32,000 nt of DNA from Fibrobacter succinogenes subsp. succinogenes S85 (GTDB lineage Bacteria; Fibrobacterota; Fibrobacteria; Fibrobacterales; Fibrobacteraceae): positions 900,001 through 932,000 of the forward strand of contig NC_017448.1 in NCBI RefSeq assembly GCF_000146505.1, written 5' to 3'. Made by a program: the position numbers and the translations under genes. Of this stretch, positions 10,912 to 20,085 are shown one piece after another; position 1 is the stretch's first letter, and every line of letters starts with the position of its first letter. The notes under the pieces are model-generated. The model was given only the letters and a program-made list of their open reading frames with translations, had not been told where the DNA came from and searched no databases.

Positions 10912-10948
10912 AGACGAAAGAACGCCCGCTACAACGGGCTACAGACGA
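10912..10948 (+). repeat. 37-nt hairpin element, copy A (AGACGAAAGAACGCCCGCTACAACGGGCTACAGACGA)
   Basis: 35/37 identical to 11934-11970. It contains the GCCCG/CGGGC stem and lies 15 nt after the GT-C stop codon. Confidence 0.9.
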
Positions 10949-11006
10949 AAGACGAAAGAAAAAAGCTAGTAACTAGTAACGACAAACTAGTAACTAGCAA
11001 ACCAAA
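10944..11006. repeat. Nine consecutive heptamer units: GACGAAA GACGAAA GAAAAAA GCTAGTA ACTAGTA ACGACAA ACTAGTA ACTAGCA AACCAAA
   Basis: Read directly from the sequence. The 7-nt register is kept over 63 nt, and TAG/TAA stops occur in several frames. Confidence 0.8.
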
Positions 11007-11023: not shown

Positions 11024-11935
11024 ATGCTTTTATCCGTAATTATACCTGTTTTTAATGAAGAAGAGATCGTTGCCGAAACCTACCGCGTCTTGGAGGAAGA
11101 GCTCAAGGATATCGAACACGAACTCATTTTCGTAAATGACGGTTCCAAGGACCGCACCCGAGAAATCGTGGAAGGCCTCCTCCCCGGGAACCCGAACAAC
11201 AAAATCATCAACTTTAGCCGTAACTTCGGCCACCAGGCCGCCTTCAGCGCAGGCCTCGACCACGCCCAGGGCGCAGCCGTCGTCATTATTGACGGCGACT
11301 TGCAGGACCCGCCGAGCCTCATCCACGAGATGCTCAAAAAGTGGCGCGAAGGTTACCAGGTCGTTTACGCCCAGCGCAACAAGCGCAAGGGCGAGACGCT
11401 CTTCAAGCGCTTTACGGCATTCTGCTTCTACCGCATCATCGGCAAGCTCACGAGCATCGATATTCCGCCTGACACTGGCGACTTCAGACTCATGGACCGC
11501 TGCGTGGTGGACCAGCTCAAGAACCTCCCGGAACGCAGCCGCTTCTTACGCGGGCTCGTGTGCTGGGTCGGCTTCAAGAAGATTGGCGTCAAGTATGACC
11601 GCGCCGAACGCACCGCAGGTACTTCGAAGTATCCGCTCAAGAAGATGTTGCGCCTCGCGTTCGACGGCATCACAGGCTTCAGCTCGGCTCCGCTCAAGAT
11701 CAGTTTCTACATGGGCTTCATCGCAACAATCGTTGGTTTTGCACTCCTCGTTTGGTCGATTCTCGAAAAGTTCCTCTCTCCTGCAACAACGGTTCCGGGC
11801 TGGGCATCTCTCATGACCGCTATCGTGTTCTTCGCAGGCGTGCAGCTTTTGACCATCGGCATTCTCGGCGAATACATCGGCCGAATCTACGACGAAGTCA
11901 AGCAGCGCCCGCTGTACATCGAAGACAAAAAGTAG
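11024..11935 (+). CDS. Family-2 polyprenyl-phosphate glycosyltransferase (ArnC/GtrB/DPM1-like)
   Basis: SVIIPVFNEEE, VNDGSKDRT, IIDGDLQDPP and DFRLMDR motifs, plus two C-terminal hydrophobic helices, as is typical of GtrB/ArnC-type enzymes. Confidence 0.9.
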   Translation: MLLSVIIPVFNEEEIVAETYRVLEEELKDIEHELIFVNDGSKDRTREIVEGLLPGNPNNKIINFSRNFGHQAAFSAGLDHAQGAAVVIIDGDLQDPPSLIHEMLKKWREGYQVVYAQRNKRKGETLFKRFTAFCFYRIIGKLTSIDIPPDTGDFRLMDRCVVDQLKNLPERSRFLRGLVCWVGFKKIGVKYDRAERTAGTSKYPLKKMLRLAFDGITGFSSAPLKISFYMGFIATIVGFALLVWSILEKFLSPATTVPGWASLMTAIVFFAGVQLLTIGILGEYIGRIYDEVKQRPLYIEDKK

Positions 11936-11970
11936 ACGAAAGAACGCCCGCTATAGCGGGCTACAGACGA
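11934..11970 (+). repeat. 37-nt hairpin element, copy B (AGACGAAAGAACGCCCGCTATAGCGGGCTACAGACGA)
   Basis: Overlaps the GT2 stop codon (TAG 11933-11935). The two substitutions relative to copy A turn the core into a perfect 16-nt palindrome, GCCCGCTATAGCGGGC. Confidence 0.9.
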
Positions 11971-12044
11971 CAAACGAGAGGATTGTTAGTCTTTGGTTAT
12001 TAGTTATATTTGGCGCATATAGAGCCTAGTTAAAGCTAATGGCT

Positions 12045-12072
12045 ATTGACTAACAACTATTGACCATTGACT
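12045..12072. repeat. Four tandem heptamers ATTGACT AACAACT ATTGACC ATTGACT
   Basis: Read directly from the sequence. The array ends 5 nt (AAAAA) before the gmk ATG at 12078. Confidence 0.8.
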
Positions 12073-12077
12073 AAAAA

Positions 12078-12638
12078 ATGAAAAACAAGCTTTTCGTTAT
12101 GAGTGCCGCCAGTGGCGCAGGCAAGACCACCCTCAAGGATCTTGTCATCAAGGATTTCCCGGACATCAAGTATTCCATTTCGGCTACAACGCGCAAGCCG
12201 CGCGAAGGCGAAATTGACGGAGTCCACTACTTCTTCAAGACCAAGGAAGAATTCGAGCAGATGATCAAGGACGACGCTCTGGTCGAATACAACCTGGTTC
12301 ACGGCAACTACTACGGAACGCCCAAGAGCTTTGTCGAGAAGACTCTCGCCGAAGGAAACCGAGTGCTGTTTGACCTTGACGTTTTCGGCAAGGTGAACTT
12401 TGACAAGGTCTACCCGGACGCCACCGGCATTTTCATTTTGCCGCCAAGCGACGAAGAACTCGAACGCCGCCTCCGTGGCCGTGGCACCGATAGCGAAGAA
12501 GTCATCCAGCTCCGCCTTGCAAACGCGAAGAAAGAAATCGAATTTGCTAAGACCAAGGGCAAGTACGAATACACCATCGTGAACGATGATCTTCAGAAAG
12601 CTGCTGACGAACTCCGCGCTATTTTGAGCCAGAAGTAA
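12078..12638 (+). CDS. gmk: Guanylate kinase
   Basis: P-loop SAASGAGKTTL, ISATTRKPREGEIDGVHYFF and YGT motifs. 186 aa. Confidence 0.95.
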   Translation: MKNKLFVMSAASGAGKTTLKDLVIKDFPDIKYSISATTRKPREGEIDGVHYFFKTKEEFEQMIKDDALVEYNLVHGNYYGTPKSFVEKTLAEGNRVLFDLDVFGKVNFDKVYPDATGIFILPPSDEELERRLRGRGTDSEEVIQLRLANAKKEIEFAKTKGKYEYTIVNDDLQKAADELRAILSQK

Positions 12639-12694
12639 ATCGCACCCCAAGCTACAAGTGCAGAAAGCCGCGAGATTCGCGCGCACAACCTTTG

Positions 12695-12735
12695 AAATTC
12701 CCGCCCCATCGGTTATCGTGAGGTGGGAATTTTTG
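12695..12735 (+). terminator. Rho-independent terminator after gmk
   Basis: AAATTCCCGCC (12695-12705) pairs with GGTGGGAATTT (12722-12732), with one G-U pair. A 16-nt loop is followed by TTTTTGTGT. Confidence 0.6.
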
Positions 12736-12850
12736 TGTAAGGTGTTATAAATTAATAATACACTCTTTTTGCACCGTATTAAATCATTTATTTTGCAAAT
12801 TCAGTAAAACAAAAAACTATTATTTTATCAATAAAAACGCAAAATCAGAA

Positions 12851-14125
12851 ATGAAAAGATACGAGCTTGATACAATCGGTCAAATCTACGGGGCAATCAT
12901 CTCCAAAACGTGGAGTCCCACGTTCAGAATGCAGGCGACGCTGCACGAGACAATTACCCCAGAGTTGCTACAGCAAGCAGCTGATGACCTCAGAATCCGA
13001 TTTCCCTACATATTCGTGGCGTTAAGGAAAGGCTCGTGTTCATACTACCTTGAGGAAAACGACGAGCCACTAAAAATCAAGCATGATAGCGAAGGCATCC
13101 TCGCCTATTACGGAATGGATAAGGCAGCCCATCATTGTTTTCGCATTCTCTACGGTGAAAAGCATATCGCCCTTGAGGTCCTACACACGCTAACTGACGG
13201 ACATGGTGCAAGAATCATCTTGCTCACGCTTGTACACCGCTATCTGGAACTGAAACACGATTTACCAGAAGTTCCTGCAAACATTCAACACGACTTAGTC
13301 TATTCGCTTAAAGACAGGCCCTCGGATGAAGAAACAGGAAACGCCTATGCAAAAAACGCAGGCAAGAATCCCGTTGATTTGAAAGAGCCCAAACCATATA
13401 GATTGCAAGGCACCCTTCTGCCAAGCGATCAAAAGATTATCACGATAGGCACAATCAACTCGGAGCCACTTATTGCCCAAGCGCATCACTATGGCGCAAC
13501 GGTCACTACATTTCTTGCAACCATTATGGCCGAAGTGGTAAATGACTTGCAAAACAAAACACCGAATCAAAAAAAGCAACCGATTGCCATCGGCATTCCC
13601 GTCAACGTCAGGGAAATTCTTGCAAGCAAGACCATGCGTAACTACACCGCACAAAAGAACCTCACTCTTCGCCCCGAGCAGTTGGACTTCAGTCTAGAAC
13701 AAAAATGCAATCTAATGGGGCTGCAACTGAAAGATTTCAGGCAAGACAAGGATTTGGTGCGGAACTTGACCGCCGCCTATGTAGCTCCATTGGAAAATCC
13801 TCTGGCAAAATATACGCCATGCGTTATTAAGAACCGACTTATCAGCTACCTCTACACAAAAGAAGCCGATGCCGTCATGAGTACCCAAATTTCAAATCTT
13901 GGCGACACAGATCTTCCAGAAGAAATGCGCCCCTTCATAGATAGTGTCTATTTTATTTTAGGAAAAGAAAAGGCCCTTCCCAATACGTGCAGCGCTATCA
14001 GCTGTAACGGGAAAACGAACATCAGCTTTACCCGATACATTCAAGAATCCACCTTCGAAGACGAATTTTTCCGCCGACTCCGGAAGCTTGGACTGAACGT
14101 TGAAATACAAGACCCATCTAAATAA
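12851..14125 (+). CDS. Stand-alone condensation-domain-like acyltransferase (HxxxDG; COG4908 / alcohol-acetyltransferase-like)
   Basis: HTLTDG at nt 13184-13201 is the catalytic His motif of the condensation/PapA5/wax-synthase superfamily. The N-terminus MKRYELDTIGQIYGAI resembles COG4908 proteins. No signal peptide. The family assignment is from memory, not from a search. Confidence 0.6.
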   Translation: MKRYELDTIGQIYGAIISKTWSPTFRMQATLHETITPELLQQAADDLRIRFPYIFVALRKGSCSYYLEENDEPLKIKHDSEGILAYYGMDKAAHHCFRILYGEKHIALEVLHTLTDGHGARIILLTLVHRYLELKHDLPEVPANIQHDLVYSLKDRPSDEETGNAYAKNAGKNPVDLKEPKPYRLQGTLLPSDQKIITIGTINSEPLIAQAHHYGATVTTFLATIMAEVVNDLQNKTPNQKKQPIAIGIPVNVREILASKTMRNYTAQKNLTLRPEQLDFSLEQKCNLMGLQLKDFRQDKDLVRNLTAAYVAPLENPLAKYTPCVIKNRLISYLYTKEADAVMSTQISNLGDTDLPEEMRPFIDSVYFILGKEKALPNTCSAISCNGKTNISFTRYIQESTFEDEFFRRLRKLGLNVEIQDPSK

Positions 14126-14157
14126 GCTATATTCAAATGACTATTTAGGGATGAGTT

Positions 14158-17100
14158 ATGTGCTGCAAAGAAACAGTATTCTTTTTTACTGCTTTAGCTT
14201 TATTTTTTTGCTTAGACGCTTGCGAAAACGCAAATTCTAAAAACTTTGTAGCCAAGGAATCTTCTTTCGACGAAGAAAATTCCGCTGAAGTTTTTGATAG
14301 CACGCACACCCAAACATATGACTCGATGATAGAAGTTTATCATCCGGAGCTGTTATTCTTTATCGGCACCGACAAGGCTTCGGCAAAAGCAAGCGAAAAG
14401 CCGCAGATGGGCGCAAAGCTTAACTACAAATTTTACATGGATGTCCATGAATTCACTTGCGGCGACTACAAAAAATTGAACAAGGAATTTGACCGACTAA
14501 AACCAGACTGCGCCAACGACAGCTTGCCACTCACCGACATTACCTATTTTGATGCCGTCCTAATCGCAAACGCCAAGAGCAAGGTTTCGGGGTTGGACAC
14601 AGTTTACACTTACACCAACGCAAGTTTTGATGAAGAAAACCATTGTACCGATATTGAAGGACTCGTAACGCATTTAGAGACTGAAGGTTTCAGACTCCCC
14701 ACCGAAGCGGAATGGATTCTGTCGGCTCAGCTAAGCTGGGATCACAAAAACAGCTGGAATAACAGCAATTCCGATTACAAAGTCCATCCCATTTGCAGCA
14801 AAGGTTTTGATGGTGCCGGTTTCTGCGATTTTTCGGGCAACGTCACTGAATGGACCAACGACTGGCTCGGAATTTTGAAGGACACTACCATCACCAACTT
14901 TACAGGTTCAACGGACGGTGGCGAACTCGGAGAGCGCATTATCAAAGGCGGAAACTACAATTCCGATAAAGCAAACAGCAACCTGTACAGTCGCGGTGAC
15001 GTTTATTCTGTAACATCTTCGACCATGGCCAAGTACGTGGGATTCCGCCTCGCCTTGGGAGTCATTCCCAAACCAGCATGGTTCACAAGCAGCGGGCAGA
15101 TCAGCGAAAGTAAAATTGAGCCCATCGCAAGTACCGCAACGCTCAAGAGCTATACCGGTTCATACAACATGAAGCTCGCCTTCCGCAACGACTTAACCGA
15201 CAACCTAGCCTTCATTGACTACAACAACGGCAACCTAAAAGTTTCAGAAATTCACGACACACTAAACGTCTACCATCCTGAAATTTCGCCCAACGGAAAA
15301 TTTGTCGCATTCTGTACCAAGCCCGAAGGCATTCTGGGAGAGTCTAAATTATACGTCCGGGAACTTTCAGAAGAATCCTCGACACCCATAGAACTCCAAG
15401 TTAAAAGCGCCGCCATCCCTCGTTGGAGAATTCTCGAAAACGGAGACACGACAATCGTCTACGTAACCGACGCAGGCAACAATTCAGACGAAACATCATG
15501 GCTAACGCAAAGTACATGGCAAGTCACTTTTGCAAACGGCAAGTTCGGTACGCCACAAAAACTTTTCGACGGCACCTTCCATGGAGGAATCGCCAAAGAC
15601 AACAGCCTAGCCGTCACGGGAGCAAGGCGCCTCCGCGTACATCATGGGCAAATCAACGACATTTGGTACTCTCAGGAACAAGCATGCAACGTAAGCCTAG
15701 CCCAAGACGGCTCAAAACGCACCGCATTCTTGGACTTTGGTGGAAAAACGGGCCAAGATTTTGTCGGTTCACACTATGCAACCCACGAACGCATTCTCAT
15801 CGCTGATAGTACAGGCAAACTCATCCAATCTATTGCGGCCCCAAACGGCTACACGTTCGACCATACCGAATGGGTTTCAAGTACTTCAAACTTGGTCGCC
15901 ACATTGACTAACGCCAACGGTTCCCACAAGAAAATCGTCCTCGTAAGCACAGCAGACAGCACACTTATTGACTTGGCCGAAGGAGAAGAACTGTGGCACC
16001 CGAGCTTATGGGTTCAACCTAAAAAGATTATTCCGAAGCCAAAATCCAGTTCAAGTTCATTCGCACAAAGCTCTAGTTCCAATGCCCCTGCGCAAAGTTC
16101 TAGCTCCAGCGTTCTCGCAGAAAGCTCCAGTTCTAGCACACCCACGCTAAATTCTAGTTCCAGCATTTATCCGCAAAGTTCCAGTTCTAGCGAAACTCAG
16201 CAAAGCTCAAGCGAGACTGCGCAAAGTTCTAGCGAAATTGCGCAAAGTTCTAGTTCCGAAAAGCAAGCCCCAAGTTCAAACTCCGAACAAATAAATTCTA
16301 GCAGTTCCTCCCTGCTAGCAGAATCATCTTGTTCCAAAGTCACTTCAAGTTCTAGCGAAGTGTCCCTTCAATCTAGTTCCAGCATCGCATCAAGCTCTAG
16401 CGAATCTTCCAGTTCCAGTGTCCCTTATCAAATTGATTTCGAACTAGACACCGATAGCGCAGGCATTTATTACAAGGCCGGGCAAGCCCAGGTCTTCGCC
16501 GAAGCCCGTTACAAAATGGAACTCCTTTGGCAATACAAAGACAAGGCCGACGTCGTCATCATCGGTTCATCTAGAGCACTACATGGCGTAGCCCCGATGG
16601 AACTCAGCGAACAATTTTTTGGAGTCAACCTCGCCTTTATCGGGAACACCCTCAGCGGCTCCGAATTTTTATACGACAATTACATCATTCCACACATGTC
16701 CAAAGTCAAGTACATCGTATCCTCCATAGACATTGACCGCGGATTCAACACATTTAGCAGTAGCTTCTTCAATGGACGCGCCAAAACCTGTCCAGGATTC
16801 GTCTACGACAAAGATCACAATTACTGGAAAGACGGCTACCCCGAAGGACTTGCAGAACTCACATACGATTCACCAGGAATGTCAAGCTACGCAAACAAAT
16901 ACCGCCACACACGTGGTCTAGATTCTATCCCAGAAGCATCAGTCTGGGAAGACATGCCTCAAGTTGATTCGGACAGCAATTTGTATAGAATGTCCCCTGG
17001 TTCATACCGCACAAACTTTAACAGCTTAAAGAAAATGGTCGAAACAGCACACGAAAAAGGCTTTTACTTTATCGGAGTCGTCTTCCCGCAGAACCCGAAT

Positions 17101-17346
17101 TACAAGAAAACGGGCGCATTTGGCCGTTACGGCATCCCCCGCAGCGAAGCACCCATACTGCTCCAAGAAATTGCAGAACTCTCTAAAACATACCCTAATT
17201 TTATATTATTCGACGAAAATAAAATGGGCGATCATGACTATACCGGCGATATGGCATACGACCGTGACCACCTCGCTTATCCGGGTGCCATCCACTTTAC
17301 AGCGCGTCTAGATTCCCTCTTAAAAGAACTACCCGCATTAAAGTAA
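14158..17346 (+). CDS. Large exported (probable lipo)protein: FGE-sulfatase/SUMF1-like domain + PD40/TolB-like beta-propeller + ~125-aa poly-Ser linker + SGNH/DltD-like C-terminal domain
   Basis: Signal peptide with Cys (FFCLDAC). FGE-sulfatase hallmarks: GFRLPTEAEW, GNVTEWTNDW, IKGGNY, VGFRLAL. PD40-like YHPEISPNGKFVAF. Ser-rich linker. C-terminal VVIIGSSRALHG and DRDHLAYPG fit a Ser...DxxH hydrolase/acyltransferase pattern. It resembles what I recall as the Fibrobacter paralogous family TIGR02171, but this is unverified. Confidence 0.7.
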   Translation: MCCKETVFFFTALALFFCLDACENANSKNFVAKESSFDEENSAEVFDSTHTQTYDSMIEVYHPELLFFIGTDKASAKASEKPQMGAKLNYKFYMDVHEFTCGDYKKLNKEFDRLKPDCANDSLPLTDITYFDAVLIANAKSKVSGLDTVYTYTNASFDEENHCTDIEGLVTHLETEGFRLPTEAEWILSAQLSWDHKNSWNNSNSDYKVHPICSKGFDGAGFCDFSGNVTEWTNDWLGILKDTTITNFTGSTDGGELGERIIKGGNYNSDKANSNLYSRGDVYSVTSSTMAKYVGFRLALGVIPKPAWFTSSGQISESKIEPIASTATLKSYTGSYNMKLAFRNDLTDNLAFIDYNNGNLKVSEIHDTLNVYHPEISPNGKFVAFCTKPEGILGESKLYVRELSEESSTPIELQVKSAAIPRWRILENGDTTIVYVTDAGNNSDETSWLTQSTWQVTFANGKFGTPQKLFDGTFHGGIAKDNSLAVTGARRLRVHHGQINDIWYSQEQACNVSLAQDGSKRTAFLDFGGKTGQDFVGSHYATHERILIADSTGKLIQSIAAPNGYTFDHTEWVSSTSNLVATLTNANGSHKKIVLVSTADSTLIDLAEGEELWHPSLWVQPKKIIPKPKSSSSSFAQSSSSNAPAQSSSSSVLAESSSSSTPTLNSSSSIYPQSSSSSETQQSSSETAQSSSEIAQSSSSEKQAPSSNSEQINSSSSSLLAESSCSKVTSSSSEVSLQSSSSIASSSSESSSSSVPYQIDFELDTDSAGIYYKAGQAQVFAEARYKMELLWQYKDKADVVIIGSSRALHGVAPMELSEQFFGVNLAFIGNTLSGSEFLYDNYIIPHMSKVKYIVSSIDIDRGFNTFSSSFFNGRAKTCPGFVYDKDHNYWKDGYPEGLAELTYDSPGMSSYANKYRHTRGLDSIPEASVWEDMPQVDSDSNLYRMSPGSYRTNFNSLKKMVETAHEKGFYFIGVVFPQNPNYKKTGAFGRYGIPRSEAPILLQEIAELSKTYPNFILFDENKMGDHDYTGDMAYDRDHLAYPGAIHFTARLDSLLKELPALK
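16044..16419 (+). repeat. Imperfect tandem coding repeats encoding the poly-Ser linker ([AP]QSSS(S) units)
   Basis: Recurrent GC(G/A)CAAAG(T/C)TCTAG(C/T)TCC-type units encode SSSSSFAQSSSSNAPAQSSSSSVLAESSSSS... Confidence 0.85.
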
Positions 17347-17347
17347 T

Positions 17348-18256
17348 ATGAAAATATTTTACCACCTCCCCGGACTGTTTGAATTTTACGAGCTGTACAA
17401 AGCGTTCTTGCCACTTTGGCGTGAACACCGGGATTGGTTTTACGACTGGTGCGAAATTGGCTCCATTTACGGAGCGCCAAGCGATTGCATTTGGGGCGGT
17501 GGGCGCGTTGGCTTTGGCGAAGCAGAGCCGCGAAAAGTCGCGAATCTTATGCAAGAATATGGAATTTCTGCAAGGCTCACATTTAGCAATTCATTGATTC
17601 GCGAAGAACATCTAGCAGACACTCAATGCAATAAGCTGTGCAAAATGTTTGAACGCTATTGCTCCGGCGAGATGCGCGCGGTTCAAAACGGAATCATCAT
17701 TCATTCCGACCTGTTGCTGAATTACATCAAAACACAATACCCCGGCTTTTATTTCGTATCCTCGACCACGAAAGTCATCACCAATTTCGAGCAGTTCAAA
17801 GCAGAGCTAAATCGCAAAGAATTCCGCTATGTCGTTCCCGATTTCAGGCTCAACAAGCAATTCGACAAATTGACAGCGCTCACAGACGCGCAAAAGCAAA
17901 AAGTCGAATTTTTATGCAATGAATGTTGTTGGTTCGGCTGCTACGACCGCAAAAAATGCTACGAGAACGTAAGCCAAAAAAGCCTTGGTGAAAACAGCGA
18001 AGACCATGTCTGCGTCTCGCCCACAGCCAAAAGGGGTTACCGTTTTTCCGATGCGATGAAGAATCCCGGCTTCATCGGAATCGAGGACATTCAGAACATC
18101 TACGCCCCCGCAGGATTCCGACACTTTAAAATCGAAGGCCGTAGCCTCGGTAGCGCTCTCATTTTGGAATTTTTGCTTTATTACATGACCAAACCCGAGC
18201 ATCAGCTTAAAGTCCGCGAAGAAATTTACCTGGACAGCACATTAGATTTGTTTTAA
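17348..18256 (+). CDS. Divergent peptidase-U32-family-like protein with a Cys cluster
   Basis: The ATG lies 1 nt after the stop of the upstream gene. VEFLCNECCWFGCYDRKKC...HVC (from ~17903) is followed by FKIEGR (KIEGR at 18128-18142). This is the same order as the U32 Cys motif and the conserved KIEGR block. The assignment is by motif memory only. Confidence 0.5.
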   Translation: MKIFYHLPGLFEFYELYKAFLPLWREHRDWFYDWCEIGSIYGAPSDCIWGGGRVGFGEAEPRKVANLMQEYGISARLTFSNSLIREEHLADTQCNKLCKMFERYCSGEMRAVQNGIIIHSDLLLNYIKTQYPGFYFVSSTTKVITNFEQFKAELNRKEFRYVVPDFRLNKQFDKLTALTDAQKQKVEFLCNECCWFGCYDRKKCYENVSQKSLGENSEDHVCVSPTAKRGYRFSDAMKNPGFIGIEDIQNIYAPAGFRHFKIEGRSLGSALILEFLLYYMTKPEHQLKVREEIYLDSTLDLF

Positions 18257-18280: not shown

Positions 18281-19189
18281 ATGGAACCGACAGACGCATT
18301 ATTCATGATAATTGTAAATATTGTACTTTTTATCATTTTTGCAATAATTCCTTTACTATTAGGCATTTTCGCCAACATTTCGACCAAGCATCCCAGGACA
18401 ATGTTCATTGCAGGGCAAACCGTATCAATTCTACTCACAATTATCACTGTCATCTCACTTTCGATATCCGTAATATACGCAATCAACGAGCAGGATTCTA
18501 CACAGCGACCCTATATTTTTGCATGGTGTATTTGCTGGCTACTCATAGCTATTTTTCCTTTATCCACATTTGACCTCACCACAAGCCAAAAAACAAAAAA
18601 GCAAAAGACCTGTTATCTCACCATTTCATTTATTACGTTTTTCCTAATTCTGTCAGGATCTGAATTTCTATACAATCGAGCGTTTGGATACGTTTTTCAA
18701 ACGGAACGGTTTGAACTATCCATAAACGATTTTTACTCGAACCATCCTGAAGCCGATAAAAATAGCGACATCAATATATTCGCATCTATACAAAACGGAG
18801 AAGATGAGTTCACAGCGAATATATCCGTATATAAAGATTCTATAACTCTAAAAGCAACAGAACTCCGTTATATAAGCAGTGAAATTATAAGCAGCGAAAA
18901 ATCGCAAAAAGATTCTTGTTATCGCAACGACTTGCCGCGTGACTTAGTTCAAGACATTATTGAAGAAATCACCTATTATCAACCGGAAATTGAATACACC
19001 TGGGTAGGAGACCTATGTTTCCATCCATTCGCATTTGTTGAACTTGCCAATAATAAAAACGCAACAACGATAATATTGAAACTTCCAGACATTGATGAAT
19101 ATCATCCCAACGCCCAGCGTTTAGCAAAAAAATTTGCGAGTCTTGTAAACGATTTAAAAATCAACCCGACAAAAGGTTGCTCCAATTAA
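18281..19189 (+). CDS. Hypothetical membrane protein (about 4 TM helices + ~170-aa soluble C-terminal domain)
   Basis: Long ORF in a very AT-rich segment with hydrophobic helices in the first ~130 aa. No family recognised. Confidence 0.6.
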   Translation: MEPTDALFMIIVNIVLFIIFAIIPLLLGIFANISTKHPRTMFIAGQTVSILLTIITVISLSISVIYAINEQDSTQRPYIFAWCICWLLIAIFPLSTFDLTTSQKTKKQKTCYLTISFITFFLILSGSEFLYNRAFGYVFQTERFELSINDFYSNHPEADKNSDINIFASIQNGEDEFTANISVYKDSITLKATELRYISSEIISSEKSQKDSCYRNDLPRDLVQDIIEEITYYQPEIEYTWVGDLCFHPFAFVELANNKNATTIILKLPDIDEYHPNAQRLAKKFASLVNDLKINPTKGCSN

Positions 19190-19218
19190 TTTCAAACATC
19201 AAAAAAAATCATGCAAAA

Positions 19219-20085
19219 ATGAAACCCGCAAAGAGATTTTTCATGACCATCTTGATTATCATAGCCTCCCTCATTTTACTTTTAGTGATTTGGTTCAACA
19301 TTCCCTATTCACCCGTCAAGACGCAGTTCCGCAATGATGTTGAGGCAAGGTTGCAAAGTTCCGCAGCACTCGCCGGAACGCTAGATTCCGCAAGTATCGC
19401 AAGCCTCCCTCCCCTCATTCAAAAATATCTCGAAACAAGCGGTTACATCGGCAAAGAAAGACGCACGCACTTGACCATGGAATACAAAGATGTCGATTTC
19501 GGAATGGGCGTAAACAAGCCGCGACTCAAAATCGATTACACGCATGTTGACTTCGCCGATTCTCCGAACAGGCTCGCCTTTATCGACAGCAAAATGTTCG
19601 GCATCCCGTTCCAAGGCTACGATTACTACAAGAACGGCAAAGGCGGCATGAAGGGCGTCCTTGCGAAGCTCGTTACGCTATTCGACCAAACCGGCCCTGC
19701 AATGGACAAGGCTTGCCTCATCACCTATCTCGCCGAAGCATTTTTTTTGCCAGAAGCACTCCTGAAAGATTTCATCACATTCAAGCAAATTGATGACCAC
19801 ACCGTCGAAGCCTCAATTACAAACAAAGGCGTAACTGCAACCGGTATATTCCACTTCAACGACGCTTACGAAATGACCTCGTTTACAACAAATGACCGTG
19901 GTCAAATTTCACCCGACGGAACCATCGAATACACACCGTGGGAAGCGCAATGCGAAAACTACAAAACCTATTCCGATGGCATCAAGCGCCCCACAATTTT
20001 CCGCGCTGTATGGAAAAACAAAGACGGCGACTTCGTCTATTTTGACGGAAAAATTAGCAAAGTGAACGGAGCTGAGGTAAAGTAG
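19219..20085 (+). CDS. Hypothetical N-terminally anchored protein (possibly DUF6544-like)
   Basis: Start moved to ATG 19219 (MKPAKRFFMTILIIIASLILLLVIW...), which avoids the overlap with the upstream gene. LPPLIQKYLETSGY resembles the motif I associate with DUF6544; this recall is low-confidence. Confidence 0.6.
   Translation: MKPAKRFFMTILIIIASLILLLVIWFNIPYSPVKTQFRNDVEARLQSSAALAGTLDSASIASLPPLIQKYLETSGYIGKERRTHLTMEYKDVDFGMGVNKPRLKIDYTHVDFADSPNRLAFIDSKMFGIPFQGYDYYKNGKGGMKGVLAKLVTLFDQTGPAMDKACLITYLAEAFFLPEALLKDFITFKQIDDHTVEASITNKGVTATGIFHFNDAYEMTSFTTNDRGQISPDGTIEYTPWEAQCENYKTYSDGIKRPTIFRAVWKNKDGDFVYFDGKISKVNGAEVK

Follow-up and report, generated by a model that had tools for sequence, protein, structure and literature searches.

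Introduction

Among the described O-acylation systems, those of the DltB-DltD, AlgI-AlgJ/X, and PatA-PatB type include an extracytoplasmic enzyme of the SGNH fold, and their logic calls for a membrane acyl translocase (MBOAT or AT3) and, for Dlt, a ligase and a carrier protein. Another group comprises PapA5, WS-DGAT, the alcohol acetyltransferases, and the condensation domains of nonribosomal peptide synthetases (NRPS), which belong to the HHxxxDG superfamily of CoA-dependent acyltransferases. The U32 family (e.g., UbiU/UbiV, RlhA, TrhP) has a reported Fe-S motif of the form CX6CX15CX3/4C, with CX6CX16CX38C in UbiU and CXnCX12CX3C in UbiV (PMC6747719).

Here, we will examine a locus of Fibrobacter succinogenes subsp. 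succinogenes S85 in which proteins resembling each of these groups are encoded side by side. The window, that is, the whole stretch analyzed, comprises 32,000 nt of contig NC_017448.1 (positions 900,001 to 932,000), and all coordinates are counted from its first letter. Three open reading frames (ORFs) follow one another on the + strand: g1 (12851-14125, 424 aa; ACX74016.1), g2 (14158-17346, 1062 aa; ACX74017.1), and g3 (17348-18256, 302 aa; ACX74018.1). The TAA of g1 (14123-14125) is separated from the ATG of g2 at 14158 by 32 nt, and the TAA of g2 (17344-17346) from the ATG of g3 at 17348 by a single nucleotide. A sequence-only reading of this DNA had placed the trio, with exact coordinates for genes and motifs alike, after the gmk terminator and an AT-rich spacer, and had proposed that it forms one undescribed envelope-modification system.

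Comparison with approximately 170 related loci does not uphold that proposal, as the three genes occur in this order only in the S85 lineage and their families are distributed independently. We think it reasonably probable that the locus is a variable chromosomal slot, in which accessory genes have come to lie, in one lineage, upstream of a resident group formed by g3 and the next genes downstream, g4 and g5, and that g1, g2, and g3 have three independent functions rather than a dedicated common one. The case should be kept in mind as a caution: tight spacing together with a plausible domain story, when both come from one genome, is insufficient to define a system.

Contents of the gmk-g3 interval

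The gene order NPCBM-domain protein, GT2, gmk, then g3, (g4), and g5, is conserved in Fibrobacter. The genes that flank the interval, gmk and g3, point the same way in 23 loci, where they lie 52 nt to 5.5 kb apart and enclose at least seven different contents. It is empty in L014 (a gap of 52 nt, in the closest species-level relative; L numbers designate the compared loci) and in L017 (125 nt). It holds only a minus-strand gene for a 335-aa protein in L016 and L031, and this gene plus one for 158 aa in L019 and L023. The 335-aa gene is followed by an ortholog of g2 (91-95% identity) and then by g3 in L098 and L100, and it accompanies an inverted g2-like gene in L166; all three of these loci are without g1. 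An inverted g2-like gene together with g1 is found in L008/9, L012/13, L015, L018, and L170/171. In L012/L013 (10001-11037), the g1 ortholog is frameshifted into pieces of 284 and 65 aa, beside an intact g2-like gene (943 or 905 aa) and an intact g3. The S85 arrangement of the trio is seen only in L097 (g1 approximately 99% identical) and in L001/L002 (91%).

The same picture emerges from two wider scans. A search for g3 using one genome per species yielded 80 loci, two of which have g1 adjoining g3, both with the g2-like gene on the opposite strand; the S85 order was found in 0/80. A metagenome scan with the SGNH domain of g2 yielded 78 loci of its family, TIGR02171, with g1 in 4 and g3 in 7 of them, all within the gmk-g3 slot. 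Failure of the three genes to co-occur outside this genome was an outcome that the sequence-only reading had named beforehand as refuting it. Apart from the S85 lineage, the slot has no content at all, is missing g1 or g2, or carries g2 inverted.

The gmk-g3 interval (12639-17347 in the window) is an insertion hotspot; g3 is its resident, and g1 and g2 are cargo gained and lost separately. Empty and filled alleles can be compared directly, and can be used to define the boundaries of the insertions.

The commonest occupant of the slot is the conserved 335-aa protein, which is always encoded on the strand opposite gmk and g3 (e.g., L012, 5912-6919, - strand; also L016, L019, L021, L023, L031, L098, L100, and L166) and has no match in Pfam, PADLOC, or PHROG. 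Two other readings of the slot were tried and rejected: as a defense island, for which PADLOC gave only a 15-bit match to g1, and as a prophage, for which PHROGs gave only a 'kinase' match to the FGE domain of g2 and an 18-bit match.

Extent of the transcription unit

The gmk gene (12078-12638; Guanylate_kin Pfam match, E = 8e-44) is followed at approximately 12694..12737 on the + strand by a predicted intrinsic terminator, which would form the upstream boundary of the unit. Its hairpin of -23 kcal/mol (z = -4.0), equaled in stability by 0/200 shuffles, is followed by UUUUUGUG, and an AT-rich spacer then leads to g1. Downstream of the trio, g4 (18281-19189, + strand) begins 24 nt past g3, and g5 (19177-20085, + strand) overlaps g4 by 13 nt. 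Because this packing continues past g3, and because no terminator-like sites were found on the + strand from g1 through g5, a five-gene transcript is the simplest reading. The likely transcription unit, judged from spacing alone, is thus g1-g5 and not the three genes originally grouped; co-transcription as such is probable, with a unit that reaches g5 instead of ending at g3. No terminator is evident downstream of g5 either.

Annotation of g1

The g1 product is predicted, from a family alignment and profiles, to be a cytoplasmic HxxxDG acyltransferase of the condensation/PapA5/AATase superfamily, and it is a rare accessory gene, with homologs in only 27 clusters among 5.8 billion proteins. Its HTLTDG motif (residues 112-117; 13184..13201, + strand) is of the catalytic type. 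None of 18 homologs (24-91% identity) departs from H112, D116, or G119, and at least 90% of them keep G117.

Taken alone, g1 has no match in Pfam or NCBIfam and nothing beyond chance in the Protein Data Bank (PDB). Its family is more informative: members match the Pfam models PapA_C (8/18; best E = 5e-7), AATase (5/18), and Condensation (1/18), and the family profile matches, over the motif, the tyrocidine synthase C domain 9bfd (E = 8.8e-4) and VibH (E = 0.03). Existing database names point the same way, being 'Alcohol acetyltransferase' in UniRef and 'NRPS condensation-like' at JGI. These sequence comparisons support membership in the superfamily, and with it the sequence-only assignment of HTLTDG as the HxxxDG of condensation/acyl-CoA-type enzymes.

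Relatives of g1 in Firmicutes (30-40% identity) have a gene for a DUF6320 zinc-ribbon membrane protein directly downstream and an Abhydrolase_3/BD-FAE alpha/beta-hydrolase esterase that is adjacent, divergent, or fused (the fusion P0020 has 718 aa). We found this in four independent contexts (L003, 3453-6328; L007, 10001-11959; L182, 8001-10867; L184, 6937-10050). Acyltransferase, DUF6320 protein, and esterase form a real conserved neighborhood of the g1 family, and it includes neither TIGR02171 nor g3.

Annotation of g2

The second gene (14158..17346, + strand) encodes a multidomain lipoprotein that belongs, over its full length, to the NCBIfam family TIGR02171 (1139.9 bits against a cutoff of 544.35; residues 39-1058 cover profile positions 21-911 of 912), and NCBI labels it 'TIGR02171 family protein'. 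The claim of the sequence-only reading that the locus has no characterized counterpart must be qualified here, as the family of g2, although no more studied than the other two, is already catalogued. Our literature search on TIGR02171 and on six protein accessions found nothing.

The N-terminal hydrophobic segment MCCKETVFFFTALALFFCLDAC ends at Cys22, within a lipobox judged by eye; paralogs have LVAC, FVAC, or CSC at this position. Behind this lipoprotein signal follow an FGE-sulfatase domain, a central region, a Ser-rich linker, and a C-terminal domain, in an order shared with the paralogs. For the central region, Pfam gave no PD40 match.

The FGE-sulfatase or C-type-lectin-like domain (residues 68-299; 14359..15054, + strand) matches PF03781 with 67 bits (cutoff 23.3). 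Its best PDB sequence match is the variable protein TvpA of T. denticola (E = 2.8e-7), followed by FGEs at approximately 1e-3 and a weak match to PorK/GldK. The catalytic Cys pair of FGE is placed just after the KGGS motif in human SUMF1. In g2 there is no Cys between residues 224 and 385, including the segment after IKGGNY. Since the position of that pair, as known from the human motif, is without Cys, the domain is probably not a catalytic FGE and would instead be a non-catalytic binding module. Following the TvpA match, we also considered this domain as the target of a diversity-generating retroelement (PMC4159848), and rejected the idea: there is no template/variable repeat pair, and among the direct repeats of the 32-kb window only a 40-nt match at chance level involves the domain.

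The Ser-rich linker (16045..16422, + strand) is built from degenerate 27-nt (9-aa) repeats, with seven copies at 27-nt spacing that are also reported as an array by Tandem Repeats Finder. It varies or is absent in TIGR02171 paralogs, where alignments break into split high-scoring segment pairs.

The C-terminal domain (residues 756-1062; 16423..17343, + strand) is modeled as an SGNH hydrolase. Its AlphaFold2 model, from an alignment of 30 sequences, has a mean predicted local distance difference test score (pLDDT) of 92 and a predicted template modeling score of 0.92. Foldseek against the PDB returned 23 matches with E <= 1e-3, with probability 1.0 for 1wab, 4iyj, 3p94, 7tog, 6xpg, and 1deo. 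These matches include PAF-acetylhydrolase, GDSL lipases, and acetylxylan, sialate, and rhamnogalacturonan acetylesterases. The two motifs are GSS (residues 803-805; 16564-16572, + strand) and DRDH (residues 1035-1038; 17260-17271, + strand). All 30 sequences share G803-S804-S805-R806. At least 90% of them keep H1038, and most, but not all, have D at position 1035 (N in P0183).

Neither Pfam DltD (PF04914) nor DUF1574 (PF07611) matches g2 itself. DltD appears below threshold in 4/30 relatives, over the DxxH end (best E = 6e-4; three of the scores are 15.2, 13.1, and 13.0 against a cutoff of 22.7 bits), and DUF1574 in 1/30 (15 bits against 29.1). The earlier description of g2 as an exported protein with a C-terminal Ser...DxxH domain of the SGNH/DltD type is right at the level of the modeled fold, in keeping with the lipobox and the sub-threshold DltD matches. 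On this evidence esterase and transferase activity are indistinguishable.

The family is abundant: the 78 loci hold 119 copies, 21 of the loci have 2-5 tandem paralogs, and no partner family is a neighbor in more than 11/78. Outside the gmk-g3 slot its genes are either single or arrayed with paralogs; head-to-tail arrays are seen in L111, L112, L124, L125, L129, L138, L143, L144, L147, L150, L153, L154, L160-162, and L165. The SGNH domains in such arrays are 30-50% identical to that of g2, a pattern typical of diversifying surface proteins.

Annotation of g3

The third gene (17348..18256, + strand), the resident conserved gene of the locus by synteny, encodes a protein with conserved cysteines that family profiles place, remotely, near U32. 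It has at least 8000 homologs, in approximately 1482 clusters at 50% identity. The sequence-only reading had assigned it to U32 from its Cys cluster (CNECCWFGC) and KIEGR; both are present, and the assignment itself is weaker than that reading implied. Against Pfam Peptidase_U32 (PF01136), g3 scores 15.8 bits, below the cutoff of 22.4. Of ten relatives (33-48% identity), one passes, with 27.1 bits over just the 36 residues around KIEGR, three score approximately 14 bits, and six give nothing.

A diverse family profile aligned by hhalign to UbiU, UbiV, RlhA, and TrhP together reaches a probability of 39% (E = 3.1e-4) over 121 co-linear columns, and places the invariant E187 of g3 and the cysteines following it opposite the U32 segment EVFxHGALC. 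The match to UbiU alone falls to 3%, over 41 columns around KIEGR, and UbiV alone gives none. NCBIfam has no match to the family, g3 alone finds only chance matches in the PDB, and the family profiles find none among PDB sequences. The rumen loci retrieved here were also searched for U32 homologs that could broaden the U32 profile, and none was found. At JGI, two family members carry the label 'collagenase-like PrtC family protease'.

Invariant in the family are C194-X3-C198-X23-C222 and FKxxGR, and the upstream C94 is mostly conserved. On this basis g3 is a probable remote relative of U32, short of an established member, and it probably binds an Fe-S cluster through C194, C198, and C222 (plus C94).

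Orthologs of g3 that are otherwise near-invariant differ by a low-complexity insertion of 0 to approximately 45 residues at about 17650-17680 (residues ~102-112). Cultured rumen Firmicutes encode proteins 74-79% identical to g3, namely, Lachnospiraceae MC2017, NK4A144, and MA2020, Butyrivibrio XPD2002, and Oribacterium WCC10 and NK2B42; the matches lie at 6532-7422 in L061 and at approximately 10001-10891 in L063, L070, L083, L091, and L092. Mean identity between Fibrobacter and Firmicutes (77-78%) equals that among the Firmicutes themselves, and no conserved neighbors of g3 were found in the rumen Firmicutes. Such similarity across phyla indicates one of two things, horizontal transfer throughout the rumen or purifying selection of exceptional strength.

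More distant members have a different setting. In L175 (526-4643), a 40-aa ORF is followed by a radical-SAM-SPASM enzyme with PqqD, a 157-aa gene, a PqqD-like::g3-like fusion (P0209, 48% identical), and Amidohydro_2. In L181 (2048-10441), a 58-aa ORF precedes three radical-SAM genes, the g3 relative P0313 (36% identical), and a B12-radical-SAM gene; the 306-aa gene beside P0313 is not detectable as a g3 paralog. These members sit in radical-SAM-rich clusters starting with small ORFs, a context suggesting that the family can act as tailoring enzymes of peptides or natural products.

Neighboring genes

The g4 product (18281..19189) is a predicted multi-pass membrane protein whose gene is kept downstream of g3 in several Fibrobacter species, with tblastn matches of 62-99% adjoining g3 in L016, L018, L021-25, L099, and L100. 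The g5 product (19177..20085) is a DUF6544/DUF6920 protein (PF20181, E = 2e-64). A DUF6544 gene of this type follows g3 in 12/74 loci (L014, L015, L018, L021-25, L032, L035, L038, and L041), behind at least three different upstream contexts, and DUF6544 is the only recurrent neighbor of g3. The two are a candidate functional pair.

Upstream, a 209-aa antisense shadow ORF (12057-12686, - strand) covers all of gmk and is longer than gmk; its counterparts in L014 and L017 have 209-222 aa. A 47-nt direct repeat, 89% identical between its copies at 10912-10958 and 11934-11980, lies directly after the stops of the NPCBM-domain gene and the GT2 gene. It holds the palindrome GCCCGC-N-GCGGGC and resembles a common terminator or an element of the repetitive extragenic palindromic type.

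Interpretation

We read the locus as a slot in which, in the S85 lineage, g1 and g2 were inserted upstream of g3-g4-g5 and are probably read through into them, so that the transcript would be shared by an accident of insertion. The genes are not treated as one system because the families of g1, g2, and g3 each have their own, wider and different, distribution. In this reading g1 would be a cytoplasmic acyltransferase of the PapA5/WS-DGAT/AATase type, forming esters or amides. The g2 protein would be lipid-anchored outside the cytoplasm, with its FGE/C-type-lectin-like module and central domain binding a ligand or polymer and its flexible Ser-rich linker carrying an SGNH Ser-His(-Asp) esterase or transesterase. 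That enzyme would remove or move O-acyl groups on glycans, either of plant cell-wall material or of the cell's own envelope, and the paralog arrays of TIGR02171 suggest diversified specificities. The g3 protein would act separately, as a strongly conserved and probably Fe-S-binding enzyme working with the DUF6544 protein.

Several observations weigh against this interpretation. The spacing of 32, 1, 24, and -13 nt, with no + strand terminator, makes co-expression in S85 very likely, which can be a sign that genes work together. The 1-nt junction of g2 and g3 is kept both with and without g1 (window, L001, L097-L100). All Fibrobacter g1 homologs with visible flanks adjoin a TIGR02171 gene, in two orientations, and the pairing of acyltransferase and esterase recurs in the Firmicute relatives of g1, so that g1 and g2 may be linked. 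In addition, the AlphaFold2 model of g3 has a pLDDT of only 37, from a shallow alignment of 24 sequences in which all homologs are at least 89% identical to g3.

That g1 and g2 form a two-gene module, with cytoplasmic acyl transfer feeding an extracytoplasmic SGNH/DltD-like step and g3 unrelated, is the most attractive of the alternatives, and we regard it as unlikely. The two genes adjoin in tandem (window, L001/2, L097) or divergently (L008/9, L012/13, L015, L018, L167, L170/171), the SGNH domain of g2 is the only esterase-type neighbor of Fibrobacter g1, its nearest Pfam similarity is to an acyl-transfer enzyme, DltD, and Firmicute g1 relatives are consistently paired with or fused to esterases. 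All these adjacencies, however, lie in one syntenic slot and represent one or two independent events, g2 orthologs or g2-like genes persist intact where g1 is missing (L098, L100, L166) or frameshifted (L012/13), and more than 70 other TIGR02171 loci have no g1 at all. The locus also offers no transporter, MBOAT/AT3, or carrier for moving an acyl group across the membrane, and the Firmicute esterase partner is cytoplasmic, as the fusion indicates, and not homologous to SGNH. A more specific version holds that g1 and the SGNH/DltD-like lipoprotein are an MBOAT-independent acylation/deacylation pair, with the Firmicute triad of acyltransferase, esterase, and DUF6320 protein as its cytoplasm-facing analogue and with g3 unrelated to the pair. 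If this were true, Fibrobacter would acylate a surface glycan or lipid by a new route. Separately, g3 might be an anaerobic U32-like modifying enzyme that is exchanged horizontally. We consider these ideas improbable.

The 1-nt junction invites the thought that g2 and g3 are coupled, with an Fe-S U32-like enzyme maturing or cooperating with the TIGR02171 protein. Sulfatase maturation can involve Fe-S enzymes, which gives an analogy for the FGE-like domain of g2, and both of the S85-type variants (window, L001, L097-L100) preserve the junction. This coupling is nonetheless quite improbable: g3 lies near TIGR02171 in only 7/78 loci, all in a single slot, TIGR02171 genes are missing from most g3 loci, the inverted variants carry the g2-like gene and g3 on opposite strands, and the C-terminal Cys pair of the human FGE motif has no counterpart in the FGE-like domain. 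Least credible, to the point that we give it almost no weight, is the pathway of the original proposal, in which acyltransferase, exported SGNH enzyme, and Fe-S U32 enzyme would modify the envelope together. Tight packing with a 1-nt junction, the confirmed domain-level calls for g1 and g2, and conservation of the trio in L097 and L001/L002 speak for it. Against it stands the confinement of the trio to the S85 lineage. Moreover, g3 occurs without g1 or g2 in 70+ other contexts, some of them in Firmicutes, and is found at the same site where the slot is empty (L014, L017). Family sizes are orders of magnitude apart, as g1 has 27 clusters and g3 at least 8000 homologs, and U32 membership of g3 is not established. 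The co-occurrence data have already largely refuted this pathway, and the variable slot is the explanation that we retain.

Significance

New here are the SGNH fold of the C-terminal domain of TIGR02171, which by sequence is closest to DltD, and the habit of the family to form tandem arrays. Together they provide a testable function, that of a surface esterase or transesterase, for abundant, Fibrobacter-specific, uncharacterized lipoproteins in a key rumen fiber degrader. We regard g3 as the most interesting lead of the region, as a large uncharacterized family that is approximately 77% identical between Fibrobacter and rumen Firmicutes and has distant members in radical-SAM clusters, and it merits a study of its own.

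Comparison with known systems

In summary, g1 belongs to a known superfamily, from which it diverges, g2 falls plainly within a catalogued but unstudied family, and g3 represents an uncharacterized family at the edge of U32. Like PapA5, WS-DGAT, the alcohol acetyltransferases, and NRPS condensation domains, g1 has HxxxDG with invariant His and Asp, and its length of approximately 420 aa suits a two-lobed C-domain-like enzyme. It differs in having a single His (LHTLTDG) instead of HH, in scoring by its own sequence below every Pfam and NCBIfam threshold, and in being free-standing, without a carrier protein or a polyketide synthase/NRPS context.

For g3, the likeness to UbiU/UbiV, RlhA, and TrhP consists of a KIEGR-type motif, three or four conserved Cys, and a C-X3-C pair as in UbiV. 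Its Cys spacing, C-Xn-C-X3-C-X23-C, differs from the published CX6CX15CX3/4C (PMC6747719), and it has neither a UbiT-like partner nor the U32 C-terminal domain.

No feature sets g2 apart from the rest of TIGR02171. With DltD and the other SGNH O-acyl enzymes (DltB-DltD, AlgI-AlgJ/X, PatA-PatB) it shares a predicted extracytoplasmic SGNH fold, the Ser of GSS, and a C-terminal D-x-x-H, and its relatives show weak co-linear matches to DltD over the DxxH region, with all the scores given above below the Pfam cutoff. It differs in that the structures most like it, those of PAF-AH, GDSL lipases, and acetylesterases, belong to hydrolases and not to DltD, and in the fusion of its SGNH domain to FGE-like and central domains that DltD lacks. 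As the sequence-only reading had also observed, no MBOAT, ligase, or carrier protein lies nearby; Pfam scans found none of these, and no AT3, in the ORFs of the window between 62 and 21908, and none is among the annotated neighbors in L001 and L012. With no membrane translocase, ligase, or carrier, the locus departs from the Dlt/Alg/Pat logic.

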